DNA from: a virus
IMG/VR virus record: IMGVR_UViG_3300042553_000685
Length of the DNA stretch: 64,000 bases
Reading direction: 5' to 3' (one strand)
The translations under genes were made by a program, and so were the position numbers. The notes under the pieces are model-generated. The model was not told the DNA's origin and did no database searches. It was given only the letters and a program-made list of their open reading frames with translations. Position 1 is the stretch's first letter; each line of letters starts with the position of its first letter. Positions 8,924 through 49,585 of this stretch are shown one piece after another.

Positions 8924-8927
8924 TATA

Positions 8928-11252: not shown

Positions 11253-11303
11253 TTATCTATATATCCGTAGGGACTTAGTAGTCTTATCAGTTATTAGATA
11301 GAC

Positions 11304-30000: not shown

Positions 30001-31767
30001 GCCCTCATAGCCAGTTATCAGCTACGTCAGGACCTAGTAGGTATGACGGCTGTATTCGCCTTCGAGCGGGCTATGCCAACCGATAAGGCAGGTAACCCCA
30101 TTAGCTCTGGTAGAGGCCTAGCAGAGAGTGTAGAGACCTACATAAATAGTGAGCCCGCGCGGGCCGCTCAGATAGATGCTCTCATAGCCGGCGGCATCAC
30201 TAATGGCCTCACCGAGATGGAGATAGAAGTAGAAGAGTTTCAGAACTTCACTCGTGACGTAATAGGAGATAAGCGCTTCCAGGATATGGGAGCGGATACT
30301 AAGCGTATATTAGCTATGAACTTCCTACGTAGTAGGGAGAGTGCATCACTCTGGGCTAATATTGATGGTAGTAAACTACTGCGCTTCGCTATTAATGATA
30401 GTACCCGCTCCACACTATACGGAGGACAACTAGAGGATGTACTTGGTCAGGATCTGATTACTGCCGCTGGTGACCTTACTGGCTCAGGAGCTAGTCCGCT
30501 GGTTAGATCACTGTTACAGGCTGTATCGGCCGGGAAGATAAACGAGCCTGAGCAGGTAACACGGGCTCTCGAGTCTCTTATGGATACCTTCACTCACGCT
30601 GATGGTAAGCGCTATGAAATAGCAGACATCTTTAGCGTATTACTCAATAGCGGTACCCCTAGCCCAGCTGATAAGGAGATAGCAGAGTTTATTCAGAAGA
30701 CAGTTCTCACAGATGAGACAGCCACTAGTCGATTAGTTACTTATGTTCGCGCTACAGCGCTAGGTCAACAGGTAGATACAGCCGATAGACTAGTAGAAGA
30801 GCTACGGGACTATGAGAGTCGTGACGTCGATACGCGCTATATAAAACTGCTACAGGATATGGGTGTCGCTCCAGATAGGGCTAAGGAGTTATCAGCTCGT
30901 CGGCGCGACTATCTACTGGCCGGCTCACCCCCTGATGTGGACCCACTGGATCCTCGCCCGCGACCAGATCGCCCCCTCTTACGCGTAGTAGATGATCTAC
31001 CTATTCTTAACAATACTGCCGGTAATCTAATGGATGTACTTCTATTCCCCTTATTAGCGTTGGCAGGAGATATGATTAGTAGTGGCGGAGCCCGCCCCGA
31101 GGCAATGCAGCAGACTATGGGTAATATGCTAGGCGCTATGGCCTACGTAAGCGCCCCAGCAGGTAACCAGATGGGACGTTTCGCTGCAGGTACTCTGATG
31201 AGTATGGGATTCAAGGGCCGCTTAGCAGGTCAACTACACGAGGACTATACAATTGGTGTCGGTATGCTATTAGCACAGGAGATAGCCTTTGGCGCAACAG
31301 CTCAACTCGCAGGCCGCTATATCATCAACCCATTCGTAGAGAAGACACTCGGTAAGGCTCCCACAATAGACTCTGACCCATTCGCGGGCCTGCGTAATGT
31401 AGCTAGCAACGTCATCACGGGGGCATTGAGCCTCGTATCAGCAGGCTTCGTAAATAAATTACTCCATCGTGGGCTAGAGGTCAGTATGCAGCGTAGTGTA
31501 GCCCCCGTGGCTCTAGACGCTGTTAGTGCCGGTATACGCGCTACTCAAGAAGCTATTAATCAGGCTCGCATGGAACGAGAGGATAATGCTGAAACCGAGG
31601 TCGTAGATGACGCGGGCTCCCCTGTTGAGTTCTTCGTACAAACTATATTCAATGGTGATGAATACGACACCTATGACGCCCTCTATATGAGTGACCTAAC
31701 ATTAGATCGTCCTAATAGTATGGCCTATCGAGATGAGAGCGAGAGTTACTCTATGGATCTGGTTTAA
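21079..31767 (+). CDS. Giant multidomain protein: HKD/PLD motif + beta-prime-like double-psi-barrel (DFDGD) motif + hydrophobic Gly-rich C-terminus
   Basis: Uninterrupted 3,562-codon ORF (alternative start ATG 21151). HPKFFVSDRAALIGTMNVT at 21937-21993 fits HxK(x)4D(x)6G(S/T)xN. QRSPPPGNTHL...LLNPISFITSNLGDFDGDTF lies at 28504-28710. The C-terminus has LLFPLLALAGDMISSGG...GALSLVSAGFV. Confidence 0.85.
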   Translation: MRPLPAKVGSFSAIALFNRFCTLLMDINSSLFSSNRFNDSARWNALYRIPEDTRSRLLQGYNPLEVLMDPNFIPPGTDASMEMVLADAFYDRVVDTSSSRAAISSLWDSMEGPARQEYFEYMAGMGGTATPARTQTDDMLNWMAQRDQLTMRSNLEGIDDERRLLLENRSSMLDLISDDGYNVRPGLLPIAALVDTAERELRIDIYQFQNERAIDMVGEAVERMAGSGQGGRVVVRMAAPSETDGDSRKNYDILGPNIMFYKRLSYLRDRFGSNVDIDIQWADRRNHPKFFVSDRAALIGTMNVTRPLGQSLEQAGSNVEFTRTIRTNLTYSQIQDADRGILPDIITRADKLYLQARDVMDRLDGGDRVLFTGQDSIGGAGDVNTALRRHIGELINRPTIDGKTGRLYMVLNQVFLLKHDKTLMASQLKGEMGENPEHERTLSGYQAYMQAREQEYSKLQANVLDLVIEGRARIGVDVHTYREDVQDPMSRLLLSNQKLAAELSQSNYDVARWIKESRGTDVSDMANVLSTYGFYSGDLEGRQRMARQLLAIASGNIEPTAVPRSHVKAYLATYENDVINQGAGPGMQNINNRQAFDILGGSQGSSNYGLNSLADNDDPLSRRLVNQEINIIYDRVGGTSLLSLSDEERDEENREYARAFYKLQSSLGIQRIGETPYIGRDRRSMYGNRVDRGAILDLISEIERVNAAVGSEIIGVQRDYDGLNLEGATLTLNKGLPTQRVYRWGAYKNASGRGPAAFIDISGGRQIESAELFNTGTMRMELAMERDGLGVGLDPRRRLRLNPLDVVVGLMSSIALESETTRLVRAPLMEYQRYYSPDNIRAAQAVQRDPGAQYQSAINFFEKLLGVSGLDLTTDEGTSRVQQGLSNLTSLFYSSDPDLDRIRDLASISRIDSRRRVAFEELSNIFLTYARSVDERGLPIIDLEAHRRGALNLAANKLYEIMDQGPMFADVLFKFIESQNDSRYKTDVRERLKEIHDSAFAAFLTPTQARNYGSTQASNRLLAYGFGQGRQPAGISIVNAALRRIKANETAFSNLSAFAYTASPLPIGPVSDLGVGDDFLFVRVAEGNIDSTATDESQYFTGYSNVLPLSRRATASEVFDLSIIRSTGVGDIIRRDELSEYMKAVSHLGIDRSLLEAEFDARGDNLLRFFFDPNKPDQVPQRLKNVIGMRPLMDISEGYTQVLELVSPTNTGKVIPELTPVRYRARYGGSDVDVLQGSMYQDAYLADLRAGLDARGLDSSIVDDSYRYGAIFSGRISRFMSSEAAVELEAIRYELADRLGIDSEDIPTEDDSVLAELFRATIVQSQLFASRERGLIGSGRARPTVMIMALEGAYSDYAYANPLHRVRRGFLDQATKSSKASLLGRDWTFDNVLVSSDDRIVFDEREQRYYLLDREGRRKQAITSRSEMRVFLDQIESTSRNPNMGAAMATSAAAGIRGEYAIEQLLQVSRLTGSDATNEVQVQIQFLRTLLEGGSRRVEAERGLAKIVPVFLSEDIMRSEVFPTIQQGGYHSALEIEDIQYIISPTNLKSYAFNHGATLLTYNGGELFRRGVLERNDQQIAAALLSITDSRLFSNNSNINIDSVYIEIAQLAAQGRLGNYYRDLYMSTMLELMRSDKLGDGSPHLEIGRKLVRGGDGAINRLQSPVLGAIDISEIMTALRSGTSSGALSDKVGLIVDAADAARRGYVDTGAMGRGFERAAIAGNLEIMMQLMSLNNTLELKTTPVTGSDSISRHAYAAMSAIAGVTQADEISVGQENVAVMLDRLSNYSRYVVLYNAVMGSSSKVPLSSKDTAQLEMQHIVSSPFMANVDKFKRDGSVDSMRRAILGVMKMAIGADPNKIAVDDIPMYDLASLDFHANSTLGEILLGAYNDARAPLSDITNLRERYRQFHTALSLLESASDTDMVSYTRGSGLDITNVTHTILDEIATWMGQPAGTDRDTLRNVVRQSLRVLKNDIYAHASRWRLAGDKVLGVEATEATVQSMGQRGLRRIAYEFPSFRIEGNNVVFNTTIKDRGFILSPEDVRIAGIQFGSHENEIAAATVDKWIMLAPGSAVRDIFEKVAIESGSRTTVELEGLSDFQIQELTRFQELNNTYEARVYNDLASAYLQSITGNKIGVTGTTGVGAASWYVPVRGAVLAEATMERFGTRGSQTREEILTRLGDHLKNNLSVIGQSGDKRIGRRLIQQQIYAITEGLSIAGMYGLEAIVDKSKNFQSKAAGIRKLAPDSQAAEYAQLEIEIKVEMDRFSSMKFSGSGDSLISTLGEAEMGTILESLPGAETHKYRDLGHLPVIISGLMIGSHGPSRSIIPDNMRIYIDTNALGNRFDNLDLLQGRIRKNPIDLSFFSDTRGKDGAEMLNIFSTRLDSLERTINAVTSAVDTYLEGKSPRGTDLHNRGVALIAQYRKLVDNANAAYAVELDTVMANRAARDSLFIMNSTLQADMSMFFTELELTRAWIQRSPPPGNTHLDKLVFGLDTLNSINNIYRDLTGSGFNFFDDTRNKSLTLLNPISFITSNLGDFDGDTFSAIFFNYSQMKLQRDDMLERAKERREMASQAADPAKRTILEKQANDLDMRASALLDTIQQVTTNANWNEYTDSVYSWVAGYMKLDKGMLEQRGIEHALVLVEQSRGLFGMMEDVYARIQPAHEPLLELIQQSRTDNAVDIVNRLSTSTDQNILTDLVNNPDTGPFVRASLHDILSATGNDQEEKAYDFLHKLTAVNARDNLSKYMKRADGSVMSGGQFDMMQKVLGQAGSVILGKTYNTTVGMLYERSPIMAVSHALENSPALQDDMRRILIDQGMAGGMSASDANLEADSKIVDIQRLARQSRTEVGEVGTFLQEIQQMLRDAIKPKMGGAEFLENLSQYHKRFVDAVDDVERQRVVDDMSRLLPSITPLFKLDAYIGAHKELLASATNDAQDSKINDLLTKLSIGETEQLDLSRRLSVLRRDEIGTHSRALIASYQLRQDLVGMTAVFAFERAMPTDKAGNPISSGRGLAESVETYINSEPARAAQIDALIAGGITNGLTEMEIEVEEFQNFTRDVIGDKRFQDMGADTKRILAMNFLRSRESASLWANIDGSKLLRFAINDSTRSTLYGGQLEDVLGQDLITAAGDLTGSGASPLVRSLLQAVSAGKINEPEQVTRALESLMDTFTHADGKRYEIADIFSVLLNSGTPSPADKEIAEFIQKTVLTDETATSRLVTYVRATALGQQVDTADRLVEELRDYESRDVDTRYIKLLQDMGVAPDRAKELSARRRDYLLAGSPPDVDPLDPRPRPDRPLLRVVDDLPILNNTAGNLMDVLLFPLLALAGDMISSGGARPEAMQQTMGNMLGAMAYVSAPAGNQMGRFAAGTLMSMGFKGRLAGQLHEDYTIGVGMLLAQEIAFGATAQLAGRYIINPFVEKTLGKAPTIDSDPFAGLRNVASNVITGALSLVSAGFVNKLLHRGLEVSMQRSVAPVALDAVSAGIRATQEAINQARMEREDNAETEVVDDAGSPVEFFVQTIFNGDEYDTYDALYMSDLTLDRPNSMAYRDESESYSMDLV
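21087..21150 (+). promoter_or_regulatory. Hairpin + TTTTTC element upstream of ATG 21151 (weak variant of the early cassette)
   Basis: actgcc (21087-21092) pairs with ggcagt (21103-21108), followed by tttttcagctatagctctatttaatagg. It lies inside the 5' extension of the giant ORF and argues for a start at 21151 (MDINSS...). Confidence 0.35.
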
Positions 31768-35948: not shown

Positions 35949-36031
35949 GAATTACTCCTAATTAAATTTTGTGGACAATAATTAAATTGCAGAGGAACTA
36001 CAATAAATTTGCGGGGCCGCCTCTGCCAATA

Positions 36032-36442
36032 CTATCTGTATCTCTTGTGTATATACGCCCCTATCTGGCTCATTACCGTACCTAGCGTATATGCTAGTGT
36101 CTCTTCATCATCATCTATATCTTCTCCTAGTTTAAGTAGACCCTTCAGTCTCAGATATGATGTGGCTATGTGTAGAGCCTCGTGCGCTATTATACCGGCA
36201 TCTAAGTAGGGGAGACATAACCCTACCCATCCCACTCTACTATGTATATAGCCATCTTCATTTACATTATAGTCTGGTATTACTATGGCCTTATAGTCTA
36301 CTGTATGGCCCCCTCTCTTCTGGTGCCCCCATAATAGTAGAGATCCCACGGTGTCGTGAATGCGGGCCTCATAGTAGTGACCATCTTCCTCTAACATAGA
36401 GTTGTCTCTACTCGGATATATACGGAACCTTCCTGTTATCAT
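36032..36442 (-). CDS. Small HExxH-motif protein
   Basis: 136 codons with IAHEALHIA (HExxH). ATGA overlap with the endolysin gene stop. Confidence 0.5.
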   Translation of the reverse strand: MITGRFRIYPSRDNSMLEEDGHYYEARIHDTVGSLLLWGHQKRGGHTVDYKAIVIPDYNVNEDGYIHSRVGWVGLCLPYLDAGIIAHEALHIATSYLRLKGLLKLGEDIDDDEETLAYTLGTVMSQIGAYIHKRYR

Positions 36443-37194
36443 GTCAGCACCGCCTGTATTCTCTTCCAGTGCTCTAGTCTATCTGATAACCCTATCAGCC
36501 CGCCATTGATACGTCGTGTTACCTGCCTGAATGCGTTTATATCATTCTTGTCTGCTATTTCATTTAGCCCCCGTGTTCTCCAGTAGTGCGCTGCTATGCG
36601 TGCTGAGTTGATGGGCTCCCTTGCTAGTTCTGGGTTATCTACTAGCGGTAGCCCTAGCATATTCCCCATGTTTTGGTAATTGGCCCGGCCCGTTAACTGA
36701 AATAAACCTCTACCTCTGAATCTTCGCCCATCTCCTACCTTTATATTACCGAGGTCTCTCCTGCCCTCGTATCCCCTCTGTATTGGTGTGGGCCCCCATA
36801 TCTCCTCATCGTAGCGTAGGTTCCCTGACTCGTGCATCAGCTGAGCTAAGAACATCGCCATACGCGCGGGCCCTTTTATATTACACTCCTCCATCGCTGC
36901 CATTAGAGGCCTGTAGTATCGGTCCCTATCTTTCTTAGAGGCGGGAGCTAACGCTAGATCGTACTCTCCTCTCGTCATTACTTCCTCATCTGATAGTAAT
37001 AGACGCACAGAGCCTGGTCCTATTAGGTCGGGCTCCGCTTGATTATTTGCCTTCTTCCACTCCTTCCACCTAGTCTCTGTCCTCGGCCCCATTACTCCAT
37101 CTACTACTAAACCACCTAGCTCTTGTTGTAGCTCCCGCACCTGCTGACTATTTAACTCTTGCAACCGCATTGCTCTATCAATGTTTCTTAGCAT
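36439..37194 (-). CDS. Endolysin: PG_binding_1-like N-domain + GH19 (chitinase-class lysozyme) domain
   Basis: LNSQQVRELQQELGGLVVDGVMGPRTETRW (PG-binding repeat). FLAQLMHESGNLRYDEE and GRGLFQLTGRANYQNMG are GH19 signatures. Confidence 0.85.
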   Translation of the reverse strand: MLRNIDRAMRLQELNSQQVRELQQELGGLVVDGVMGPRTETRWKEWKKANNQAEPDLIGPGSVRLLLSDEEVMTRGEYDLALAPASKKDRDRYYRPLMAAMEECNIKGPARMAMFLAQLMHESGNLRYDEEIWGPTPIQRGYEGRRDLGNIKVGDGRRFRGRGLFQLTGRANYQNMGNMLGLPLVDNPELAREPINSARIAAHYWRTRGLNEIADKNDINAFRQVTRRINGGLIGLSDRLEHWKRIQAVLT

Positions 37195-37251
37195 ACTTCT
37201 ATTCGTATCAATGTGCTAATGCTCCTTGTCTTGTATGGGGAGGGGTAGGCA

Positions 37252-37878
37252 TTAGTATCTCCAGCGGGGCCCCTTCTTTCCTCCTGCTCTCCACCCCTTC
37301 GTTAACCCTAGGTGCGTGAAGCCTCTCCCACTCTGGGCCCCCCACCCCAGCGGCCCGTACCAATGCTCGTCTAACCACCTCTCGAACTCGATTAGCTCGG
37401 CGGGGTCTATGGACGCTATGTCTACCGCTAGCCCCTCTATATGCTGACTATTATCCACTCCTCCTACTGCCCTGTTAATCGCGAGGGGCCTATACCAACT
37501 CGTTACTATAATGAGCTTACCCCACTCCTCCCTTATCTTATCTAACTCCTTAGCTAGTCTCACTATATTGTCCTGGATGACCTTACTCGTTGGTATGCGC
37601 GCCGCCTGCCGCTTCGTTACCTCCCTCACAGTAAAGTACTTGCTTACCTTACTCGTCATATTTGTCCAGTCTATCTCCTCTAGTAATAGACCTATAGAAC
37701 CCGGCCCTATTAACCCCGGTTCCCCCATACCCTTACTCCTCTTCCAGTCCTCCCAGGCCTTCCTCGTCATTGGCCCCATTATTCCTGTCTGCTGTATCCC
37801 TAGCCTCCTCTGTAATTCTATTACCTGTATCTCACTCAACTTCTCTATACTAACCGCTCCCTTGATGTCCTTTAACAT
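37252..37878 (-). CDS. Endolysin: PG_binding_1-like N-domain + M15 zinc peptidase domain
   Basis: SWYRPLAINRAVGGVDNSQHIEGLAVDI is an M15 signature. I moved the start to ATG 37878 (MLKDIKGAVSIEKLSEIQVIELQRRLG, GGAGG 7 nt upstream) because it parallels the N-terminus of the neighbouring endolysin. The track start 38001 runs into a 70-bp repeat. Confidence 0.8.
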   Translation of the reverse strand: MLKDIKGAVSIEKLSEIQVIELQRRLGIQQTGIMGPMTRKAWEDWKRSKGMGEPGLIGPGSIGLLLEEIDWTNMTSKVSKYFTVREVTKRQAARIPTSKVIQDNIVRLAKELDKIREEWGKLIIVTSWYRPLAINRAVGGVDNSQHIEGLAVDIASIDPAELIEFERWLDEHWYGPLGWGAQSGRGFTHLGLTKGWRAGGKKGPRWRY

Positions 37879-37933
37879 ACCATTACCTCCTATATAACTG
37901 CTCCATACTGCCACACCTCTACAGCTTATTACT

Positions 37934-38003
37934 GAGCTCTTAGATTCTTGATATTTGCTGGCGGTATTTTGGTCTATTATAAGGTATACCCCCTCCCCCA
38001 CCC
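37934..38003. repeat. 70-bp direct repeat, copy 1
   Basis: gagctcttagattcttgatatttgctggcggtattttggtctattataaggtataccccctcccccaccc. Confidence 0.9.
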
Positions 38004-38208: not shown

Positions 38209-38260
38209 GGGCCTGCGGGCCCCTTTTTCCTTCTGGTGAATTTTAATCCTAGGAGGATAC
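38209..38260 (+). promoter_or_regulatory. Early cassette A (hairpin + TTTTTCC-TTCTGGTGA...TTTTAATCCTAGGAGG)
   Basis: gggcctgcgggccc ctttttccttctggtgaattttaatcctaggaggatac ATG(38261). Confidence 0.6.
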
Positions 38261-38599
38261 ATGATCTACAAACATTTGCCACGAGAATTTGACTACGCCT
38301 ACCGTGGTCATACTCACACCGACCTCGATTGGGGTCGGTGTGGCGAAGTTCTTTACGCCAGCCGCAGTCTGGCAGTGGCCAAGGACTTCGCTCGTGGAGG
38401 GCATGGGGCTGTGCTCATTCTCGCCTTCGACGGCGACGTCGAAGGCGACCGACCTTGGTGGTACGTAGAGGATGACCCCTCCTACTACGACGAAGTAGTC
38501 CTTCCGACCAGACTATGCGTCTGGTCTAAGTTAGTAATATTCGGCGGTGAGATCATCGCCGAACCAGTGATTAACTGGAACCCAGGTTATACCAAGTAA
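38261..38599 (+). CDS. Early protein, unknown; weak R-S-E (ADP-ribosyltransferase-like) motif pattern
   Basis: 112 codons with a cassette and SD upstream. YAYRGHT ... LYASRSLAVAKDF ... YYDEVVLP occur in ART-like order. Confidence 0.6.
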   Translation: MIYKHLPREFDYAYRGHTHTDLDWGRCGEVLYASRSLAVAKDFARGGHGAVLILAFDGDVEGDRPWWYVEDDPSYYDEVVLPTRLCVWSKLVIFGGEIIAEPVINWNPGYTK

Positions 38600-38613
38600 C
38601 CTGGGGTAATTTA

Positions 38614-38669
38614 GGGAGTGTAATGCTCCCTTTTTCCTCGTAGTGAACCTTATCTCTAAGGAGGAGATT
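38614..38669 (+). promoter_or_regulatory. Early cassette B
   Basis: gggagtgtaatgctccc tttttcctcgtagtgaaccttatctctaaggaggagatt ATG(38670). Confidence 0.6.
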
Positions 38670-38993
38670 ATGCTTTACGTTTTGAACTCTTTTCCCAATT
38701 CTTTGTACCCCACCACGCCGGGTGGGGTTATAACCAGCACTTGTATTTCAGAGGAAGAGGCCCGCGCTCTCCTCTCCATTACTGACTGGACAAGTGCTAT
38801 AGGGCACCTCTCTACGGCGGAGCTACTCTCCGCCCGTCTCGGAGTAACCGTACCCGATTCACGGGTACAGGTGCCCCCAGGGGCCGAGTATATTGTATGT
38901 TTATTTGTCAGCCCTCGGCGGCTGGCAGAAGGAGAACGATGGACGGAGGAGGATATACTCCAGTTCGACATCAACTACATCCTTGTTAAATAG
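38670..38993 (+). CDS. STIV B116-like (DUF1874-type) protein
   Basis: MLYVLNSFPNSL...TSAIGHLSTAELLSARLGV...SRVQV... matches my memory of the B116 family (NAFSINML ... AIGH.ST ... NR). I prefer ATG 38670 with AAGGAGG over the track's GTG at 38643. Confidence 0.55.
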   Translation: MLYVLNSFPNSLYPTTPGGVITSTCISEEEARALLSITDWTSAIGHLSTAELLSARLGVTVPDSRVQVPPGAEYIVCLFVSPRRLAEGERWTEEDILQFDINYILVK

Positions 38994-39002
38994 TTGATAG
39001 AA

Positions 39003-39055
39003 GGGGCACAGTGCCCCCTTTTCTTCTAGTGATCTTTATACCCAAGGAGGGTATT
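39003..39055 (+). promoter_or_regulatory. Early cassette C
   Basis: ggggcacagtgcccc cttttcttctagtgatctttatacccaaggagggtatt ATG(39056). Confidence 0.6.
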
Positions 39056-39190
39056 ATGAATACTAAACTATCAATTGTTATTGCTGTCAGTGCCGTTTTA
39101 CTAACATGCTCTGCCATCATTGGTGGAGTATACGTAGGCATTTGTCACAGTAACTACCCCGTGACGGCGTGCGAGGTAGACAAAGAGTAG
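39056..39190 (+). CDS. Small membrane peptide (44 aa), paralog 1
   Basis: MNTKLSIVIAVSAVLLTCSAIIGGVYVGICHSNYPVTACEVDKE. Below the ORF-track size cut-off. Has its own cassette and SD. Confidence 0.6.
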   Translation: MNTKLSIVIAVSAVLLTCSAIIGGVYVGICHSNYPVTACEVDKE

Positions 39191-39197
39191 TAGTTAA

Positions 39198-39253
39198 GGG
39201 GCCTGGGTGAGGCCCCTTTTTCCTTCTAGTGATCTATAACCCTAGGAGGGATT
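39198..39253 (+). promoter_or_regulatory. Early cassette D
   Basis: ggggcctgggtgaggcccc tttttccttctagtgatctataaccctaggagggatt ATG(39254). Confidence 0.6.
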
Positions 39254-39388
39254 ATGAAATACACATTATCTTACATAGCAGCTATTGCGGTAATTCTTGG
39301 CACATGCGGTGCCATCATTGGTGGAGTATACCATGAGGCCTGTTATGGGCCTCTACCTACCTCACTATGTAAGGTAGACAAAGAGTAG
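39254..39388 (+). CDS. Small membrane peptide (44 aa), paralog 2
   Basis: MKYTLSYIAAIAVILGTCGAIIGGVYHEACYGPLPTSLCKVDKE. Shares ..C.AIIGGVY...C......C.VDKE with paralog 1. Confidence 0.6.
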   Translation: MKYTLSYIAAIAVILGTCGAIIGGVYHEACYGPLPTSLCKVDKE

Positions 39389-39395
39389 TAGTTAA

Positions 39396-39451
39396 GGGGC
39401 CTGGGCAGGCCCCTTTTTCCTTCTAGTAGTTTATAATCCTAGGAGTACATC
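39396..39451 (+). promoter_or_regulatory. Early cassette E
   Basis: ggggcctgggcaggcccc tttttccttctagtagtttataatcctaggagtacatc ATG(39452). Confidence 0.6.
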
Positions 39452-39967
39452 ATGAATGGTCTACAAATGGAGAAAGTAGTGTTGCGTGTGATTGAAGAAT
39501 TAGGTTTTAAATGTCCCAAGCCCCGTGAGGTATGGGGGGAGGGTTACTTGTATAACGCCGCCCATGAGCTCGCGAATAAGCATCTAGAGCTCAACTCCCG
39601 AGGCGGTGTCCTTCGTCGTCTCGTCCCCACTGATGATTGGGGAGTCCTAGACCGGGTATACAAGGTGGACGTAATAGTCCGCCAGTATACTGGGGAATTA
39701 TGGGCTCTTCAGCTTACTACCGATGCCGAGGCGGTATATAAGAAGCTGGGCCAGCTTTATAGTACCGATAGTCTTCGTCTGGCTGTTGGCATCGCCAAGA
39801 CCTGCTTGGTGGAGATTAAACCCCCTCAGCCTACCTGGGAGGGGCTCGGCCTGACTAGCCGGGTGGACCGGGATCAAGTAGAGGAGTGCCTCTATGAAAT
39901 GTTCGAGACAGTAGAAAAGAGTGACAAGCTCTTTCACTACCAGCTAGACCTAAGCTGGTTAAAGTAA
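39452..39967 (+). CDS. Early protein, unknown
   Basis: 171-codon ORF with a cassette upstream. Confidence 0.65.
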   Translation: MNGLQMEKVVLRVIEELGFKCPKPREVWGEGYLYNAAHELANKHLELNSRGGVLRRLVPTDDWGVLDRVYKVDVIVRQYTGELWALQLTTDAEAVYKKLGQLYSTDSLRLAVGIAKTCLVEIKPPQPTWEGLGLTSRVDRDQVEECLYEMFETVEKSDKLFHYQLDLSWLK

Positions 39968-40017
39968 TTTAAGAGTATAGGCAAATCCTCAGAGTAAATG
40001 GGATGCCTACGCTACCT

Positions 40018-40082
40018 GAGTGGAGTCACGGCTGTGGTTCCACTCGCTTGATTACATAGACGCTAAGTGCATCTATGTAATC
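40018..40082 (+). ncRNA. Two strong hairpins in a 180-nt ORF-free spacer (candidate small RNA or processing site)
   Basis: gagtgga(40018-24) pairs with tccactc(40039-45). gattacataga(40050-60) pairs with tctatgtaatc(40072-82). Confidence 0.3.
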
Positions 40083-40093
40083 AATTAATACTC

Positions 40094-40149
40094 AGGAGGG
40101 CCCACTCCCCTTTTCTTTCTAGTGAATATTTACTCTAGGAGGTAAATCC
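40094..40149 (+). promoter_or_regulatory. Early cassette F
   Basis: ggagggcccactcccc ttttctttctagtgaatatttactctaggaggtaaatcc ATG(40150). Confidence 0.55.
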
Positions 40150-40299
40150 ATGTCCCCTTATCACACTTATCTTCAATTAAATCATCAAACGATTCAACTC
40201 CGGTCCGTAGATGGGCCAGCATGTCATCTAGACCTGGATGGTCACCGCTGGTATGTTCTACCAGATGGTGACTTCGAGATCATCACTCTAATAGACTAA
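40150..40299 (+). CDS. Small early protein (49 aa)
   Basis: MSPYHTYLQLNHQTIQLRSVDGPACHLDLDGHRWYVLPDGDFEIITLID. Has a cassette and SD upstream. Below the ORF-track cut-off. Confidence 0.55.
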   Translation: MSPYHTYLQLNHQTIQLRSVDGPACHLDLDGHRWYVLPDGDFEIITLID

Positions 40300-40306
40300 C
40301 ACTATA

Positions 40307-40361
40307 GGGGGCTATATGCTCCCCTTTTTCCTTCTGGTGAATTTTAGTCCCAGGAGGACAC
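40307..40361 (+). promoter_or_regulatory. Early cassette G
   Basis: gggggctatatgctcccc tttttccttctggtgaattttagtcccaggaggacac ATG(40362). Confidence 0.6.
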
Positions 40362-41120
40362 ATGTACAAAATCCTAGCAACGTCAATCTACGCCGCACTA
40401 CAGGCAGCAGGCATCTACGTCCACCCAACGACGTGGGCGTTCATCTCGTACTATTTCATGGGCGGTTCCCAACCCCCAACCCTCTCTGAGGCCGACATCG
40501 CTGAGACACGCGACGCGGTAATACGAAACCTCAAGGCTCGTCTTAAGGACGAAGAAATGAGCCGCCGCTCTCTAGTTACTTTCGTGGACATAAATATAGA
40601 AAACGGTTGGTGGTCTTCTTTAAAGGGGGCCATCGGTAACTTCAACTACCGCATTTTGGCGGTAGGTCCCGACACGATTAAGGTGGAGTGTCGTGACACG
40701 TGGGACTTCAATCCCAACTCCCATTACATAGAGCTACCCTGTTCGCCTCGTTTAGCGAGTGCAATATCTTCTCTGGCTAAGAAGGTAGGTATAGAGGTCT
40801 TCTACAATAAAAATAAAAGAGAGCTAATTTTCTGTGAAAAGGATCTGGTCAAGCTCAATCCTGGTCGCGCCTTCACGACCGTGTGGAAAGTAGAGGTCCC
40901 CACAGCGGAGGTAATTCCTGAGTGGGCTACTTACTGGGAGGTGGCTACCTGGAATGAAGGTAACTATGCCTTCATTCGGCCTCTCAAGTACGTACCCTTA
41001 CCCCTCTGCCGCTACCAGCGGGGTAATGGAGTTTATGTTGGACGGGACTACCATCCCGACATCGATTACGTGTCGATGTTAGAAGCAGGTTGGGCTCCCG
41101 CTGTAGATTTACCTGAATAA
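40362..41120 (+). CDS. Early protein, unknown
   Basis: 252-codon ORF with a cassette upstream. Confidence 0.65.
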   Translation: MYKILATSIYAALQAAGIYVHPTTWAFISYYFMGGSQPPTLSEADIAETRDAVIRNLKARLKDEEMSRRSLVTFVDINIENGWWSSLKGAIGNFNYRILAVGPDTIKVECRDTWDFNPNSHYIELPCSPRLASAISSLAKKVGIEVFYNKNKRELIFCEKDLVKLNPGRAFTTVWKVEVPTAEVIPEWATYWEVATWNEGNYAFIRPLKYVPLPLCRYQRGNGVYVGRDYHPDIDYVSMLEAGWAPAVDLPE

Positions 41121-41366: not shown

Positions 41367-41419
41367 GCCAGCAATTGGCCCCTTTTCTTTTAGTAGTCCT
41401 ATACACCCAAGTATACACA
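41367..41419 (+). promoter_or_regulatory. Early cassette H (degenerate, no SD)
   Basis: gccagcaattggcccc ttttcttttagtagtcctatacacccaagtatacaca ATG(41420). Confidence 0.45.
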
Positions 41420-42157: not shown

Positions 42158-42162
42158 TAAAA

Positions 42163-42215
42163 GGGGCCCTGCTTGGGCCCCTTTTTCCTTTAGTGGCTAT
42201 ATATTACCACTAACC
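42163..42215 (+). promoter_or_regulatory. Early cassette I
   Basis: ggggccctgcttgggcccc tttttcctttagtggctatatattaccactaacc ATG(42216). Confidence 0.55.
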
Positions 42216-45200
42216 ATGAATACCATCAACTCTATCGTCTTCCAATCCAATGTTCTCGTAGCCTCTATCGGCGCCGTTATCGCAAACACTCGTGTTACTA
42301 CACGACGTGTAGGCCCTGGTCGCCGTGCTCAGCAGATAGCAAGCCGCCGCGCTAATCGCGTAGTACGCCGTCGCTCTCGTCGTATTGCGTCGGCTGGTCG
42401 TCCTATCCGCTCCTTACCTCAAAGCCAACGCCCCTGCGTTGTAAAATCGGCACGACGTACGCTACGTCGTGCCGCAGCTGCCACAGTCTTAGCCGCTCGC
42501 AAACCCGTGTTACGTAACCGTAACGTCGTAGACAAACTTATCTTACGACAACGTAAGGCCAAACCTATAATGCGCGCTGTCAGCGCAGTATTTGCGCGTC
42601 CCTCGCGTCCTACTAACACCGGCACCGGCACTAAAGCCGTTGCTACCGTAGTTAATAATGCTGCTGGTAGTATTATCGCTGCCCTCGACCAAGGGCGCCT
42701 AAACTATCGTGGCAACGGCCGCACATGTGTGGGCAAGAAGTACAAAACTAAAAACGCTAAAGCCGTTTTAGCGATAGCTAAAGCTGCTAAAGCTACTGAT
42801 AAAGCAGCACGCGTTAAACGCTGTATGAGCGTTGTAGTACCAGAATTACCAAGTGATGTACTGGCTTGCCGCATGAGAGTCGTAGGCAAACTATGCGGTG
42901 TGACCTTTGTACAAGGGGACATAGCGTCTTATTGTGACAATGTCGTTACTATACCTTCATTCGAAGATATATACGCGATAACTCACGAGCTTGTCCACCA
43001 CTGCCAAGCTCTAGGTCTTACTGAAGACCTAGATATAGCTCTGGTGTCTGAGGCCGCTATTGGCGCGGGCTCGGCTCAATGGCATGACACTAAATCGTTC
43101 TACGAAGGTACTGAGCATGAGAATGATGAATACGAAGCAGCTCTGCTTATGTACGACCCGGCGTTAGTGGCCCGCCTCTTATGCACTCACTACCTCATGA
43201 CCGCGTTTGTAGAAAGCGGGGCACCTGGTCCTGATGATACATGGATGGATGTGGTAGATAGTTTAGATCCTGCGATTTGTCGTGAAGTCGTAGGTCTCGA
43301 TGATCGCGTACTCGATTATAAAACCTATGGCGAATATGCTGAAGCCGTTGGATATGATGACACTAATACGTTATTAGACTGGGAATTTGTCTTTAACAAT
43401 AGTGTCAACAACGATAATGCTGTTGCGCTAACCATTCAAGCAATTGATGGTCTTATTGGTGCGGCGCCCGCAGCAGTAACTCCTACCCACCCGCTCTCTA
43501 ACATAGGAGCCCCTACTAAGGGGTTAGAGAGTGATAGCTCCTCTAACAATACCACCAACACTAGCACTACCATGAAGAGCATTATCGAGATGTTAATTCC
43601 TGACCCTAGTACTCTCGGTGGAGCCGTGTCTCCTAAGCAGGAGGCGCGCATTACGGGAGCTCGTAAAGAGTTAACCCGCTTGTTTGGGGCTAATAACTTC
43701 GACCTTCTGCCTGAAGGTCCGATTCTCTATGTCGTATCTGGTTACAACCGTATGTGTAAGAAGTTCCTTGCGCTTCTAGACCATCGGGTTGTTTACACCA
43801 CGGATTCTAAAATGAATCCTAAGGTCATTAACTTAGGTGTAACTAAGTCTATTCCCTATGAAGACGACAAGCATACCTATACTACTAAGACCGAATGCTT
43901 AGTTAGCATGTATAGTGAGCACTTCCTCACTAAATTAGCCACGTGGTCTGGTGATGACCTGGCCGCTCTTGTAGGCTGCCTGTGTATTAAACAACACCGT
44001 ATTGTTAGTGTTGAGGGCCCCTGTGTTGTCATCAAGGGTAATAACCGTAACACTACTTTCAACTTTAGTACAGGTACCGTCAATGACGGCCGTCAGAGTC
44101 GCATCGCTAATGAGCTAGTTAAAGTAGGAGGCAAAGACTACAGTGGTCGTGTAGCCCTTGTAGCGCTCTGTATGAAGGTAGTGTATAACGCTACTGGTGC
44201 GCGTGCTATCCTCAATGAGGTAACTAACCTATGGCGCGAGGACATCAACTACGGCGCTCAGCCTAAAGAGGGTCAATCTCTATTTGAGATTAATCGCTGT
44301 ATGTCCCGTCCTGTTGTTTTCAAGCCTTGGGATAAGGCCTTCCCGTTCCTGCAAGTGGAGAACGTTGGCCTCGCACCCAGCGATCTTGAATTGTCGCTCA
44401 AAGCCGGTGTCATAGCAGCACCTGATAAATACAATTCAAAATGGATCGCTGTAGGTAAGGGTGCCAAGGCCATGTTCCTCGGACTTAAGGATAGTAAGAT
44501 ATACTCCATCCATGACTTCAGCAAGCCCACTAAGGTATACAACCGTCCACCTAGCTCGGGTAAATACACCCGTGCTGAGGTGGTAGGTCGTCATGATAGC
44601 CTACTTCGCGTTGATTTAGGTGATGGTAGCTATAGTTGTGGTGGTGGCCTCTATCTACGCACCGCATTCACCAATAGCCGCTTTGGCTTTGGCAGTGGTG
44701 TTGCTGCTATACGCCGCGACCTTGAGTTCGAATACACCGTACCGAAGACCATTACTAAGGAGTTTCACGTACTCCGTATTCCTAGCGAAGTCCGCGCTCT
44801 TATGGCTGCTGATCTAGATGACCCTATGAGTAAACTCATGGAAGTCATCGAAGGCAAAATAGAGAAGGCAAAGGGGCAGGTCTATGCTCCTGGTAACCCT
44901 ATCATTAGCATTATGCGGGGCAAGTACTGCATAGTGAAGAACGAGACATTCGCGCAGGACATCCGCGTAATAGGCGGGACTGTCACGCGTAATGGCGTCG
45001 AGGGCCGCGCTGATAGCGTCACTATTCGACTTGAGACTGAGATGGTAGGGCGCGACCAAGCCCTCAAACTCCGCGGTCTAGGTAAGAAGCTTACCACTCT
45101 TCCCTATGACGTTGAGGGACTATCTCAACCCTGGGATATCATCCTAAATAACGAGACCACCAAGGGATGGCCCGCGCTCATAGAGATGTTCGCCATTGAG

Positions 45201-47297
45201 AAGAGAGGCTGCACCTATACTCCTGAGGGTGCGCTTCTCACCATCGATGCTACTGGTGAAGTTATTGATCTTATGACTAAGAGTAATACCTTTACTGAGT
45301 GGGCTCGAGCCAACAGTGTTAAAGAGGTCATCTCTTTTAATATGGCCCGCGACCTGTGGGATTCCATCTCCTCCGTAGTAACTAACGATGACATCAAGGT
45401 AATCGACATCGACGATACCAGCGTCCGTATCGAAGAAACAGTAGAGGTTATATACGGCTATCTGCCGTATGATATCGAGATAGCCACTCCTCGTGAGTCC
45501 GTAGCATTCTCCAAAATGACTATGGAACAGGTGGGTATTGTGGCTCTACAGAACCGCTCTTGGGGCGAAGCACTCATGGAGGAGGTTAAGTACGATAACG
45601 TCATGTCCATAGTTAGTATGATCACGTCTAAAAACTGTGCTGCTCACATTAACATCAGCACTACTGAGGGGCGTGACCATCTACGGAACATTATCGGCGT
45701 AGTTAACAACTACGTTTCTGATAGCACCCCCGGCAGTGACCGCAAACTGCTAGAGCGTTTTGCTACCATCTATCCAGATGGAGTGGATATCGTTGCCCAG
45801 AATAACGGTAATGAGGTCTCTCTTCATATCAATGGTAAGGCCCTAAGCGCGTTCGGTACCTTCTCTGGCGCCTCCGCTACTGGTATTATGCTAGACCTCT
45901 TGACACTGTTGGCCTACGTTACTGATGTAGGAATTGAAGACCAAAGCGGTTTGGATAGTAAAATCTACTCCATGACCGCTAAGGTCAGCCGCGGTTTACG
46001 CACATGGTGTAACACCATGGTTAAATCCAAAAGCATTCTGAAAAGTATGGCCCGCGCTGGCGATGTGGTCGTTGGTAAGGTCAAGACCAGCTATAGCCCC
46101 TTGCTCCATAGCTCTGATGGCGTGCCTGTAATTCTCATGCACCCCGATTGCCCTATGGTGCGTATGCTTGGCATCGAAGAAGGTCAGGTTATTGGGATAC
46201 AACGGACTCCTATGGGCTTCGTCCTATGCGGCCGCGTTAAGTTCTCTGCTACTGATGCCTTTATCGCACACTACACAATCAACCCTCTCCTATGGCACGC
46301 CGTTAACGAAGGCGATGCTGATGGTGACCAGTGCGGCGGCATTAATGCTCACAAGTATAGCATCGATGCTGAGAGTGCCCTCACTATCAATGCTAGTCTC
46401 ATGGGCATGGGCGGCTACTTCTACTGCTACGAAGCAGATGACCTGCCGTTCTTCGCCTTCATGAGTTATGAAGATAAGATGGGCAAGAAATCCCTCACTA
46501 AGTGGGATAAGCCTGTAGCTACTGCTATCGCTGTTGATAAGTATGTAAGCGATGCTGCTGAAGTGCACACGCATTATAAAGTAGCCGTAGGTGTCGGCTA
46601 CGGCATCTGCTCCGCACTTGCCTTCCAGACCTGGGATAGTATGTACCGCGCTAGCGGCGTCGATACCGACGCACTTAAAGCATGTGTTATCGCTTGGCGT
46701 TTCGTTTATGAAAGCATGGGTCTCGGGGGCTATACCCCTGAGGCTAAGATCTTCATGGCTACCTTAGTGCAAGCAGCTCGCGCCTGGGCTGCTGGCGTAT
46801 CTATGTATAAGTCGTTGCAAGACGGGTTATACTACTCTGCCAACTCCACTAAGCTTGCGGATACGGATCGCCAGGGAGGTAGTGTACCTCCTGCTCGGGT
46901 TATGGCTAACCTTATGCCTGCTAAACTAGCTAAGGAGCCCGCGGTAATCTACCATCTTATAAAGGCCCGCGCCCGTACTCTCACATACGGCGCTCTCGAA
47001 CGGGGCAACTTCGCTCGCAAGAGCCTTATCATGTCATCTGCCATATACGGAGCCTTCCGTCGTACTGGCCAGGGTCATGATCCTGTGGTTCCTATGACTC
47101 AGGATGACGCGGCCAGTTATGGCGCTGATGATATCGTCCCCGTTAGTGTGTTCGACATGGTAAGTGAGTTCCAACTCTCTAACTATGTCAAGAACCCTCA
47201 ACTCAAGCAGCTGTTGGAAATCGCAACTGCTGTACATCTCGATCTCGGTGACTACAAACTAGAACTCGCTGAAGCTGAAGATCATCCTGATTTCTAA
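42216..47297 (+). CDS. 1,693-aa protein: Arg-rich N-terminus + HExxH + beta-prime-like double-psi-barrel motif (DADGDQ)
   Basis: Uninterrupted ORF. I prefer ATG 42216 (MNTINSIVFQ) after cassette I. HELVH is at 42984-42998. IQRTPMGFV...TINPLLWHAVNEGDADGDQCGGINAH is at 46197-46352. E. coli beta-prime, for comparison, has [10 protein letters not shown]...[21 protein letters not shown]. Confidence 0.85.
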   Translation: MNTINSIVFQSNVLVASIGAVIANTRVTTRRVGPGRRAQQIASRRANRVVRRRSRRIASAGRPIRSLPQSQRPCVVKSARRTLRRAAAATVLAARKPVLRNRNVVDKLILRQRKAKPIMRAVSAVFARPSRPTNTGTGTKAVATVVNNAAGSIIAALDQGRLNYRGNGRTCVGKKYKTKNAKAVLAIAKAAKATDKAARVKRCMSVVVPELPSDVLACRMRVVGKLCGVTFVQGDIASYCDNVVTIPSFEDIYAITHELVHHCQALGLTEDLDIALVSEAAIGAGSAQWHDTKSFYEGTEHENDEYEAALLMYDPALVARLLCTHYLMTAFVESGAPGPDDTWMDVVDSLDPAICREVVGLDDRVLDYKTYGEYAEAVGYDDTNTLLDWEFVFNNSVNNDNAVALTIQAIDGLIGAAPAAVTPTHPLSNIGAPTKGLESDSSSNNTTNTSTTMKSIIEMLIPDPSTLGGAVSPKQEARITGARKELTRLFGANNFDLLPEGPILYVVSGYNRMCKKFLALLDHRVVYTTDSKMNPKVINLGVTKSIPYEDDKHTYTTKTECLVSMYSEHFLTKLATWSGDDLAALVGCLCIKQHRIVSVEGPCVVIKGNNRNTTFNFSTGTVNDGRQSRIANELVKVGGKDYSGRVALVALCMKVVYNATGARAILNEVTNLWREDINYGAQPKEGQSLFEINRCMSRPVVFKPWDKAFPFLQVENVGLAPSDLELSLKAGVIAAPDKYNSKWIAVGKGAKAMFLGLKDSKIYSIHDFSKPTKVYNRPPSSGKYTRAEVVGRHDSLLRVDLGDGSYSCGGGLYLRTAFTNSRFGFGSGVAAIRRDLEFEYTVPKTITKEFHVLRIPSEVRALMAADLDDPMSKLMEVIEGKIEKAKGQVYAPGNPIISIMRGKYCIVKNETFAQDIRVIGGTVTRNGVEGRADSVTIRLETEMVGRDQALKLRGLGKKLTTLPYDVEGLSQPWDIILNNETTKGWPALIEMFAIEKRGCTYTPEGALLTIDATGEVIDLMTKSNTFTEWARANSVKEVISFNMARDLWDSISSVVTNDDIKVIDIDDTSVRIEETVEVIYGYLPYDIEIATPRESVAFSKMTMEQVGIVALQNRSWGEALMEEVKYDNVMSIVSMITSKNCAAHINISTTEGRDHLRNIIGVVNNYVSDSTPGSDRKLLERFATIYPDGVDIVAQNNGNEVSLHINGKALSAFGTFSGASATGIMLDLLTLLAYVTDVGIEDQSGLDSKIYSMTAKVSRGLRTWCNTMVKSKSILKSMARAGDVVVGKVKTSYSPLLHSSDGVPVILMHPDCPMVRMLGIEEGQVIGIQRTPMGFVLCGRVKFSATDAFIAHYTINPLLWHAVNEGDADGDQCGGINAHKYSIDAESALTINASLMGMGGYFYCYEADDLPFFAFMSYEDKMGKKSLTKWDKPVATAIAVDKYVSDAAEVHTHYKVAVGVGYGICSALAFQTWDSMYRASGVDTDALKACVIAWRFVYESMGLGGYTPEAKIFMATLVQAARAWAAGVSMYKSLQDGLYYSANSTKLADTDRQGGSVPPARVMANLMPAKLAKEPAVIYHLIKARARTLTYGALERGNFARKSLIMSSAIYGAFRRTGQGHDPVVPMTQDDAASYGADDIVPVSVFDMVSEFQLSNYVKNPQLKQLLEIATAVHLDLGDYKLELAEAEDHPDF

Positions 47298-47304
47298 TTA
47301 CAAT

Positions 47305-47375
47305 GGGGTCATATGACCCCTGGGGCCACCTGGCCCCTTTTTCTTTTAGTGGAGCTCTTTACTCCATATGATAGG
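47305..47375 (+). promoter_or_regulatory. Early cassette J (double hairpin; no ORF follows)
   Basis: ggggtcatatgacccc t ggggccacctggcccc tttttcttttagtggagctctttactccatatgatagg. It lacks SD/ATG and leads into the repeat region. Confidence 0.5.
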
Positions 47376-47395: not shown

Positions 47396-47757
47396 GACAG
47401 CGAATGTTACTAGCGGCGGCTTATGCTCGTGACGGCGAATTCTATTAGCGGTGGCAATAAACTATCTGTTGGGTACTCCCTAAGCACCCAGCAAGAGCTG
47501 CGTTAGTTTCATTAGCCACTCCCTTTCAGAAGAGCTATTGTCGCGATAGCTACCATAGCTATATTAGCCACTCCCCAACGGAGGAGCTTATGGTACTCGA
47601 GCTGCGAAAGTAGCCAGTGCCACTCCCCAACAGAGGGGCTTGTGTCGCACTAGTCGTGATAACTACTATAGCTGCACTAGCTGCTCTAGCCACTCCGTTG
47701 GGGAGGGCCTATGGTACTCGAGCTGCGAAAGTAGTCGATACCACTCCCCAACGGAGG
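47396..47757 (+). repeat. Non-coding array of short repeats and hairpins (candidate structured RNA or origin/iteron region)
   Basis: A 25-nt pair at 47396-47420 / 47431-47455 (20/25 identical). gccactcc-ccaac-ggagg-type hairpin units at 47567, 47619 and 47740, plus one at 47689 with the loop inverted (gttgg). A 24-nt duplicate atggtactcgagctgcgaaagtag at 47590 and 47711 contains a GCUGC-GAAA-GUAGC hairpin. Confidence 0.7.
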
Positions 47758-47798
47758 GATATAACCTCTAATTACTCATTATTACCTATTAGCTAGCC

Positions 47799-48574: not shown

Positions 48575-49585
48575 ATGAACGCTACACCACACACAATAAT
48601 ATCTAGACAGGGCGTCGAACAAAATAGAAGACAGTTTAAAGAACAACCCTTCGGGGAAGATTTGGGCAACGACATAACCTTAGAAATGGTTGCTATCCCA
48701 GGGGGAACTTTCCTGATGGGTTCATCGCCAAATGAGAAATATAGTTTTGATGATGAACACCCTCAACATCAAGTAAGTGTCCCACCCTTTTTCATGGGTA
48801 AATACCCCATCACTCAGGCTCAGTGGAAAGAGGTTGCCTCTCGCACAGATTTAAAAGTTGAAAGAGACCTTGATCTCAACCCAGCCTATTTTAAAGACCG
48901 TCCCGATAGTGATCGCCGCCCCGTAGAACAAGTCAACTGGTACGATGCCGTTGAATTTTGTGCGAGATTATCGATACTGACGGGAAGGGAATACCGACTA
49001 CCGAGTGAAGCGGAATGGGAATACGCTTGTCGTGCTGGAACTACTACCCCATTCTACTTTGGGGAAACCATTACAGGGGAATTGGCTAACTATGACGCCA
49101 GCGAAACAACTCCCGTGGGACAATTTACACCCAATGCCTTCGGACTGTACGATATGCACGGCAATGTCTGGGAATGGTGTGCTGATACTTGGCATGATAA
49201 CTATGACGGTGCGCCTAGTGACGGTAGTGTTTGGCTTGATAATAATCAAGAGGAAAATATTGATGGAAAGAGCAGATTCGGCACATATTCTGTCATGCGG
49301 GGCGGTTCTTGGTGCATACATCCGTCTTACTGCCGTTCCGCTTCCCGCAGCAGCCGCGATCGCCGCGACTACTTCAACCTCTACGGTTTTCGGGTAGTCT
49401 GCGTCGACCTTGATCGCGAGGGTGCTGATTCCCCTCGATTTTGGGATAAAGCTGATCGCTTGATGGTGGTGACGGTAGGAGGTGCAGCCCTAGGTGGATC
49501 GATTGCGGGAGTTTACGGTGCGGTTATTGGTGCGATATTAGCGGCGGGCTGCGGATGGTATATTACCTTTAGGAAAGCAAAATGA
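48575..49585 (+). CDS. FGE-sulfatase (SUMF1/formylglycine-generating-enzyme-like) domain protein with C-terminal TM segment
   Basis: MVAIPGGTFLMGS...HQVSVPPFFMGKYPITQAQW...VNWYDAVEFCARLS...YRLPSEAEWEYACRAGT...GLYDMHGNVWEWC...RGGSW...GFRVVC. The C-terminus has VVTVGGAALGGSIAGVYGAVIGAILAAGCGWYI. Confidence 0.85.
   Translation: MNATPHTIISRQGVEQNRRQFKEQPFGEDLGNDITLEMVAIPGGTFLMGSSPNEKYSFDDEHPQHQVSVPPFFMGKYPITQAQWKEVASRTDLKVERDLDLNPAYFKDRPDSDRRPVEQVNWYDAVEFCARLSILTGREYRLPSEAEWEYACRAGTTTPFYFGETITGELANYDASETTPVGQFTPNAFGLYDMHGNVWEWCADTWHDNYDGAPSDGSVWLDNNQEENIDGKSRFGTYSVMRGGSWCIHPSYCRSASRSSRDRRDYFNLYGFRVVCVDLDREGADSPRFWDKADRLMVVTVGGAALGGSIAGVYGAVIGAILAAGCGWYITFRKAK
49356..49363. repeat. HIP1 (GCGATCGC) site
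   Basis: The only GCGATCGC I noticed in the window. It lies inside the FGE-like gene. Confidence 0.6.

Follow-up and report, generated by a model that had tools for sequence, protein, structure and literature searches.

What does a 1,693-residue protein that neither Pfam nor NCBIfam can name do for a cyanophage? The question is raised by a gene in a 64,000-nucleotide stretch of viral DNA (the window) from IMG/VR virus record IMGVR_UViG_3300042553_000685. Megablast and tblastn searches place this DNA with the Microcystis myoviruses Ma-LMM01 and MaMV-DC (genus Fukuivirus), at 88-91% nucleotide identity to that group across the target gene. For the toxic bloom-former Microcystis aeruginosa, Ma-LMM01 serves as the reference phage, and its gp064, the ortholog of the target, is annotated as 'hypothetical protein'. 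The product is very probably a single-chain two-barrel nucleotide polymerase, and most probably a DNA-dependent RNA polymerase (RNAP).

42216-47297, + strand: complete target gene, 1,693 amino acids (aa) plus stop codon, no internal stops; ortholog of Ma-LMM01 gp064, PHROG 30979

Translation bears out the limits that the initial annotation gave to this open reading frame (ORF). The longest mechanically called ORF starts at ATG 42090. This start was rejected for its overlap with the upstream gene and for taking in a terminator-like hairpin (42162-42190). ATG 42216, preferred for these reasons, agrees with the starts of the MaMV/Ma-LMM01 orthologs. Pfam and NCBIfam return no named domain for the target or for gp080, a giant ORF of the same phage group considered below, and PHROGs offers both only families of 'unknown function'. 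Pfam searches of 36 target-family members gave scattered noise and no RNA_pol domains. The target protein shares about 87% aa identity with its orthologs in the group, versus 97-98% for gp080.

Evidence for a polymerase begins with two signatures, each the counterpart of a double-psi beta-barrel (DPBB) of cellular RNAP, within a core that makes up most of the protein.

43569-47294, + strand: polymerase core, aa 452-1693, beginning at MKSIIEML, the joining point of relatives without the N-terminal module; its family-wide conserved part is about aa 600-1685
45066-45170, + strand: beta-subunit-like barrel (DPBB-B) signature, aa 951-985, K951-L-R-G-L-G-K-K958-LTTLPYDVEGLSQPWDIILNNETT-K983-G, with K951, K958 and K983 invariant
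46197-46352, + strand: catalytic stretch of the beta-prime-like barrel (DPBB-A), aa 1328-1379, with R1330-x-P1332 and D1367-A-D1369-G-D1371 invariant; helix, Asp loop and strand in the predicted model

The DPBB-A stretch had been noticed in the initial annotation as IQRTP...NEGDADGDQ...GINAH and lies exactly where it was placed, from I1328 (nucleotide 46197) to H1379 (nucleotide 46352). It is colinear with E. coli beta-prime 424-469, and the beta-prime segment quoted in that annotation is identical to those residues of the beta-prime chains in the PDB. The near-equal spacing claimed for the two proteins also holds, with 35 residues from the Arg to the first Asp in beta-prime and 37 in the target. 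A published filter for DPBB-A looks for a D-x-D-x-D triad with [RK]-x-P 20-100 residues upstream (Chaban et al. 2024, PMC10770324); in the target, 34 residues separate P1332 from D1367. Residue frequencies give an estimated chance expectation of about 0.02 for D.DGD in 1,693 random residues.

The DPBB-B signature, in full K951-L-R-G-L-G-K-K958-LTTL-P-Y-D-V-E-G-LSQ-P-W-D-I-I-L-N-NETT-K983-G, follows the family pattern K.R....K...PYD..G...DIILN...KG. Checked against the E. coli sequence, the colinear stretch is beta 1063-1111, the pattern in common being K..R...K...PYD..G..P.DI(I/V)LN....(K/R), and the K951/K958/K983 stretch is matched to beta K1065/R1069/K1073...R1106. The Lys and Arg of this beta stretch are the basic residues of the beta-subunit barrel. 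About 410 residues separate the two signatures in the target, and the beta-like one precedes the beta-prime-like one, which is the order in single-chain two-barrel polymerases (Chaban et al. 2024, PMC10770324).

An Asp-rich loop may have another origin. If the protein were structural or bound Ca2+, D-x-D-G-D(G) would be a metal loop of the EF-hand or thrombospondin kind and the likeness to beta-prime would be coincidental. DSDGDG does resemble Ca-binding loops, and every sequence match to solved RNAPs is statistically weak. However, a second, independent RNAP signature, the beta-like Lys/Arg motif, has the order and the distance expected of it, R-x-P precedes the loop by 35-37 residues as in beta-prime, and the fold matches are almost exclusively to RNAPs. 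A protein with no enzymatic role is therefore extremely improbable, and the EF-hand or Ca-loop reading of DxDGDG was rejected on these grounds.

The same residues stand out across a large family. An exhaustive HMMER search with residues 494-1693 against 1.84 billion representatives, clustered at 50% identity, recovered 156 homolog clusters at E<=1e-3, almost all of them metagenomic; 68 clusters reach E<=1e-30. Most members have 1,200-1,700 aa, with a few giants near 3,000 (2,900-3,400 aa). Among isolated phages the family is confined to the Fukuivirus group and one Microcoleus phage metagenome assembly; tblastn of distant members against isolated phages returned the Fukuivirus group only. A word-indexed protein search with the target found close relatives only, and a short-region alignment query led to one protein. 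In an alignment of 36 sequences with 18% mean column identity (full-protein numbering), the invariant positions are G811, G828, K951, K958, K983, E1088, R1330, P1332, D1367, D1369, G1370, D1371, Y1454, E1499, L1503 and G1505. N-E-G-D-x-D-G-D is nearly universal among full-length members, some distant ones having NLGDFDGD instead. At five loci the gene sits in co-directional arrays of small unknown ORFs, as near phage early/middle regulators. The target thus founds a large phage family that lacks annotation in Pfam, NCBIfam, PHROGs and the literature searched, a comparison that did not extend to the 23 catalogued RNAP families (Chaban et al. 2024).

Structure prediction adds a second line of evidence. 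AlphaFold2 modeled residues 560-1693 from the 36-sequence alignment with a mean predicted local distance difference test (pLDDT) score of 89.2 and a predicted template modeling score of 0.88. In this model the Asp loop lies between a short helix and a strand, and K951, K958 and K983 lie in strands of a beta-rich domain. Two further elements, candidates that are assigned from their position, follow the catalytic barrel.

46533-46640, + strand: bridge-helix candidate by position and length, a helix of 36 residues (aa 1440-1475) that follows the catalytic barrel; H1453 near-invariant, Y1454 invariant
46665-46793, + strand: trigger-loop candidate, a helical pair, aa 1484-1526, AWR..YE.(L/M)GL.GY, with E1499, L1503 and G1505 invariant

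When the model was compared with the PDB by Foldseek, 48 of the 50 best matches were RNAP chains, the other two being unrelated proteins. The RNAP chains include bacterial, plastid, Pol I/II/III, vaccinia and ASFV second-largest subunits (probability 0.9-1.0), together with bacterial beta-prime chains and gp96 of Thermus phage P23-45. Matches in the BFVD include a protein of Acinetobacter phage ME3 (7.6e-7) and, from an uncultured siphovirus, a 'minor tail protein' (2.3e-5), as well as a fragment of a crAss-like phage giant protein (E 1.3e-2) and giant-virus and baculovirus RNAP subunits. Among PDB sequences, the top match of the family profile is the catalytic loop of P23-45 gp96, and hhalign of the target family with gp96 gave E 3.9e-4 at a probability of 36%. 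The corresponding comparison with P23-45 gp64 was negligible (2.8% probability) and is not used as evidence; direct phmmer of the target against the PDB returned noise only.

Taken together, the invariant signatures of both barrels, the confident model, the RNAP-dominated fold matches and the top, if non-significant, profile match to gp96 sustain the two-barrel polymerase candidate that the initial annotation proposed. That annotation had also suggested a Foldseek comparison, in which RNAP beta, beta-prime and gp96 chains predominate. Homology to the two-barrel polymerase superfamily is well supported and highly probable, and DNA-dependent RNA polymerase activity is a likely prediction. In the proposed mechanism, the beta-like barrel would supply the basic K951, K958 and K983, and the D1367-x-D1369-G-D1371 loop of the beta-prime-like barrel would hold the catalytic Mg2+. 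The long bridge-helix-like helix and then the trigger-loop-like helical pair would follow the catalytic barrel.

A two-barrel core could instead serve a different chemistry, that of a QDE-1-like RNA-dependent RNA polymerase or a PolD-like DNA polymerase/primase engaged in replication or counter-defence. Such cores are common to QDE-1-type RNA-dependent RNA polymerases and archaeal PolD (Chaban et al. 2024, PMC10770324), and sequence and model data do not fix the template or the substrate. However, the best 50 Foldseek PDB matches contain no PolD or QDE-1 chain, the 48 polymerases among them being DNA-dependent RNAP chains, and bridge-helix-like and trigger-loop-like elements follow the catalytic barrel. 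Moreover, the phage encodes its own DNA polymerase I, primase, clamp-loader-like ATPase and accessory replication proteins, so that a replicative role of the target is unneeded; a replicative PolD-like role was rejected. Another chemistry is thus quite improbable, and synthesis of RNA rather than DNA, on a DNA template, would be the function of the protein.

Single-chain relatives of cellular RNAP are few, the known ones being YonO, crAss gp66, P23-45 gp64/gp96 and QDE-1. The best fold matches of the target are to cellular RNAP beta (RpoB/Rpb2) and beta-prime (RpoC/Rpb1), with which its local motifs are colinear. Unlike the cellular enzyme, it is one polypeptide rather than two, most peripheral domains are absent or unrelated, and no sigma-like or alpha/omega partners were identified. 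P23-45 carries gp96, a virion RNAP fused to the tail tape measure, and gp64, a non-virion RNAP (PDB 8H2M/8H2N; Chaban et al. 2024, PMC10770324). Like these, the target is a single-chain two-barrel phage polymerase by its features, with DPBB-B before DPBB-A and R/K-x-P ... D-x-D-G-D. It differs in having no significant sequence similarity to them past about 80-120 residues, a core of about 1,100-1,240 aa versus 616 aa for gp64, and no tail-protein fusion of the gp96 type. The virion RNAP gp66 of crAss-like phage phi14:2 (PDB 6VR4), considered here together with QDE-1-type enzymes, is likewise a large phage protein that unites both barrels in a single chain. Unlike the target, gp66 has a DFDID motif, is packaged in the virion and acts early; 6VR4 and QDE-1 are absent from the target's best 50 PDB matches, cellular beta-type chains matching better. 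The closest functional model by description is YonO of the SPbeta prophage, a stand-alone single-chain two-barrel DNA-dependent RNAP of the ~100-kDa class that transcribes late genes (Forrest et al. 2017, PMC5467207), although the two sequence families, for which no direct comparison was made, are unrelated at the HMMER level.

Transcription data for Ma-LMM01 suggest when such an enzyme would act. RNA-seq places gp064 in class B5 (middle), its log2 signal being 1.6 after 1 h and 7.5 after 3 h in a time course in which the early genes gp061-gp063 already reach 7.3-7.9 (log2) at 1 h. The giant gp080 is also B5, and the 'middle' class holds 162 genes, timing being coarse in that sampling. The initial annotation had the polymerase made from an early array, and this part of its proposal fails. 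The array in question, a set of hairpin/T-run cassettes between 38.2 and 42.2 kb, has its Ma-LMM01 counterpart in the middle genes gp065-gp067, whereas the true early cluster, gp054-gp063, lies directly downstream of gp064 on the same strand, behind a hairpin/T-run and repeats. Ma-LMM01 gp064, a middle transcript, thus lacks the early expression of non-virion phage RNAPs of the N4 RNAPII, phiKZ nvRNAP and P23-45 gp64 type, the last of these being a pre-early/early product.

Several observations weigh against an RNAP. The best Foldseek PDB match has E 3.3e-3, with none at or below 1e-3, and TM-scores are 0.07-0.17; these scores are low since the superposition is limited to the core barrels. On a database scale, the solved RNAPs give no significant match to the sequence profile (E 1.1). 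Furthermore, the gene is not early and so cannot drive an early-to-middle switch as N4 RNAPII, phiKZ nvRNAP and P23-45 gp64 do. Finally, the Ma-LMM01 transcriptome study attributed all three temporal classes to sigma-70-like promoters and reported no phage-specific motif, leaving the mechanism of timing open. A late-acting non-virion enzyme of the YonO type would fit the timing and is possible, whereas a driver of the early-to-middle switch would not fit. A gp064-type enzyme, as a middle-phase product in the infected cell, may read some of the phage's late or middle genes by way of signals specific to the phage, beside or in place of the host enzyme.

The part of the protein that precedes the core raises a different question, that of where the enzyme works.

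42216-42905, + strand: Arg/Lys-rich N-terminal region, aa 1-230, probably disordered, with low pLDDT at aa 140-209; accessory, missing from close relatives
42843-43217, + strand: candidate for a small zincin-like metallopeptidase, aa 210-334; one helix and three strands precede the HELVH helix (42984-42998), and more helices with the conserved DEYEAALLM Glu/Met come after it
43218-43568, + strand: low-confidence linker, acidic and then Thr/Asn/Ser-rich, aa 335-451

Residues 1-230 are as basic as first described, with 22% K+R (35 R, 16 K), 2% D+E and a calculated pI of about 12, and are followed by an acidic stretch (residues 230-460, pI 4.05). The HELVH motif reported at 42984-42998 is also present, as aa 257-261. 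The AlphaFold2 model of the N-terminal module has a mean pLDDT of 51.9 and is confident only at aa 210-334 (pLDDT 70-88). Across the 10-11 sequences with the module, H257-E-L-V-H261 is invariant and both E305 and M312 are conserved. The motif context, V-I-x-I...hhhHELhH with E and M some 45 residues on, is common to few family members only, among them the Microcoleus-type giants of 2,900-3,400 aa. The best matches of the module are the thermolysin active-site helix (E 1.1) and, by Foldseek, the ArdC metalloprotease (E 0.33, probability 0.30), both non-significant. Like the ArdC or 'polyvalent protein' zincin (PDB 6SNA), the module has an HExxH helix after a short three-stranded sheet and a downstream Glu and Met; it differs in that the model is confident over 125 residues only and has no Pfam match. 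The local fold is compatible with a zincin, an identity that is a lead only.

Relatives indicate that residues 1-451 (the Arg-rich and zincin-like parts) are an add-on, unneeded for core activity. ENA scaffold LIAN20-1 (locus L006, 156 kb), a close metagenomic relative, carries two tandem copies of the core at 5316-9122 and 10001-13717, 92% and 84% identical to the target. Both begin MNTTPNT...MSIIEML, without the basic or HExxH region (the 450-aa module). A few kb further downstream, the tandem copies are followed by genes for IS605 OrfB and a Y1 transposase. At the other extreme, Microcoleus phage My-WqHQDG (OR578708; locus L001, 4183-14415) encodes a 3,410-aa giant version of the target, in which an Arg-rich N-terminus is joined to the same HExxH module, near aa 1050, and to the polymerase core, which spans about aa 1800-3350.

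Such modules bring to mind a polymerase that is made in the middle or late phase, loaded into the capsid and injected, and that then transcribes the early cluster (the gp063-gp054 homologs) from the repeats at 47491-47760. The basic N-terminus would serve DNA binding or packaging, and processing of the protein would fall to the zincin-like domain, a role that has been proposed in 'polyvalent' injected proteins. Expression in the middle rather than the early class, like that of gp080, terminase and most structural genes, is consistent with this account, as is the position of the gene immediately upstream of the early cluster. The best structural match of the Arg-rich and HExxH module, a weak one, is a metalloprotease of a transferred plasmid protein, ArdC; some homologs are giants of 2,900-3,400 aa, like N4 vRNAP or crAss gp66; the BFVD matches include a 'minor tail protein'; and P23-45 gp96, the nearest phage enzyme of known structure, is tail-fused. 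However, close relatives lack the N-terminal module and have two tandem bare-core copies, most family members are plain-sized (1,200-1,400 aa), the gene lies outside the structural module, unlike gp080, and the ArdC and thermolysin matches are non-significant. No virion proteome for the Ma-LMM01 group was found in the literature searched. A packaged form of the target is thus rather unlikely, and a polymerase with a cellular, non-virion location would be the preferred assignment.

Another candidate for packaging may be gp080, whose gene adjoins tail and head genes.

21079-31767, + strand: giant ORF, 3,562 aa, ortholog of Ma-LMM01 gp080, 97-98% aa identical

This ORF carries AWIQRSPPPG...LLNPISFITSNLGDFDGDTF (aa 2477-2543), that is, R2477-S-P ... 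N-L-G-D2537-F-D-G-D2541. The initial annotation held that the two proteins share one local pattern and look like distant paralogs. The motif is indeed present, but the spacing from Arg to Asp is 60 residues and not about 37; the likeness at the motif level stands, but similarity is confined to the catalytic loop. The target-family hidden Markov model matches gp080 only over 45 residues of this loop (aa 2515-2561, 12.6 bits), hhalign of the two families gave 20% probability, and BLASTP of target against gp080 was non-significant. Foldseek of the target model against piece 2 of Ma-LMM01 gp080 in the BFVD, where the protein is labeled 'PLD phosphodiesterase domain-containing', gave E 2.8e-3 (probability 0.54). 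Seven gp080 homologs, six IMG/VR ORFs of more than 3,000 aa (loci L013-L018) and a partial Microcoleus phage ORF, keep R...P and DFDGD. On sequence grounds, paralogy of the target and gp080 is plausible.

Proteins of the gp064 and gp080 types co-occur in Fukuivirus and in the Microcoleus phage, in which the gp080-like giant is on a separate contig (locus L004). It is conceivable, though doubtful, that Fukuivirus and many uncultured relatives run a two-polymerase programme with two sequence-unrelated single-chain two-barrel enzymes. In this scheme gp080 (DFDGD) would be packaged, injected and read the early cluster, and gp064 would be made later and read late genes. If so, phage transcription would be largely independent of the host enzyme. 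Such independence would explain both the near-untouched Microcystis transcriptome during infection and why no sigma factor or modifier of host RNAP has been found.

These proposals differ from the published picture. No paper naming gp064 or gp080, and none on a cyanophage two-barrel polymerase, was found in the literature search, and one paper describes Ma-LMM01-type phages as having no RNA polymerase and depending on host transcription. Microcystis phages are absent from a 2024 census of viruses that have at least two RNAPs (Chaban et al. 2024, PMC10770324), which agrees, as does the literature searched, with the initial impression that no such cyanophage system had been described. A phage-encoded polymerase would be a concrete, testable answer to the timing question and would alter the interpretation of bloom metatranscriptomes, for phage reads and host reads alike. 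Beyond this phage group, the 156 clusters (at 50% identity) would amount to a large family of two-barrel polymerases unrecognised by Pfam, NCBIfam and PHROGs, and the best fold matches to cellular beta-type chains bear on the evolution of the cellular enzyme.

The gene is bounded by elements that may set its expression apart from that of its neighbors.

42162-42190, + strand: upstream GC-rich hairpin and T-run, 30 nucleotides before the start codon; terminates the upstream gene and is part of the repeated inter-gene cassette
47322-47346, + strand: downstream hairpin GGGGCC-ACCT-GGCCCC and T-run, perfect, 25 nucleotides past the stop codon; insulates the target from the early-gene homologs
38209-40371, 41367-41394, 42162-42215 and 47322-47350: repeated inter-gene cassette, a GC-rich hairpin, T-run and CCTTCTAGTGAA..TTTAA.CCTAGGAGG, then ATG
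47491-47760: four to five direct repeats of 46-52 nucleotides with a TAGCCACTCCC core, between the target and the early-gene homologs

Within the cassette, an inverted repeat made up of CCTTCTAG and CTAGGAGG would base-pair with the Shine-Dalgarno sequence. The cassette region contains 25 terminator-like sites versus 9.5 expected, and the same cassette precedes both polymerase gene copies on scaffold LIAN20-1. The repeats at 47491-47760 are the counterpart of a 42-bp repeat array annotated before gp063 in Ma-LMM01, and TAGCCA is part of the early promoter that was published for gp063. The repeats may be early promoters in tandem, or sites at which a polymerase binds.

Three further features were noted near these genes and in a distant relative. 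Downstream of the repeats, 48575-49585 (+ strand) encodes a homolog of the Ma-LMM01 early gene product gp062, called 'kinase' in RefSeq, which matches an FGE-sulfatase domain (PF03781, E 9e-56) with no kinase domain reported. Upstream of the cassettes, 36001-38000 is strongly asymmetric between strands, with a GC skew of -0.285 and an AT skew of -0.247 across two minus-strand ORFs (36439-37194 and 37252-38001), unlike the rest of the window. In the distant relative on a contig of GCA_013565655.1 (locus L020, 2923-3549), the polymerase gene comes last in a row of small co-directional ORFs, one of which encodes a protein kinase (Pkinase), an arrangement resembling the T7 early region, with its kinase beside the RNAP gene.

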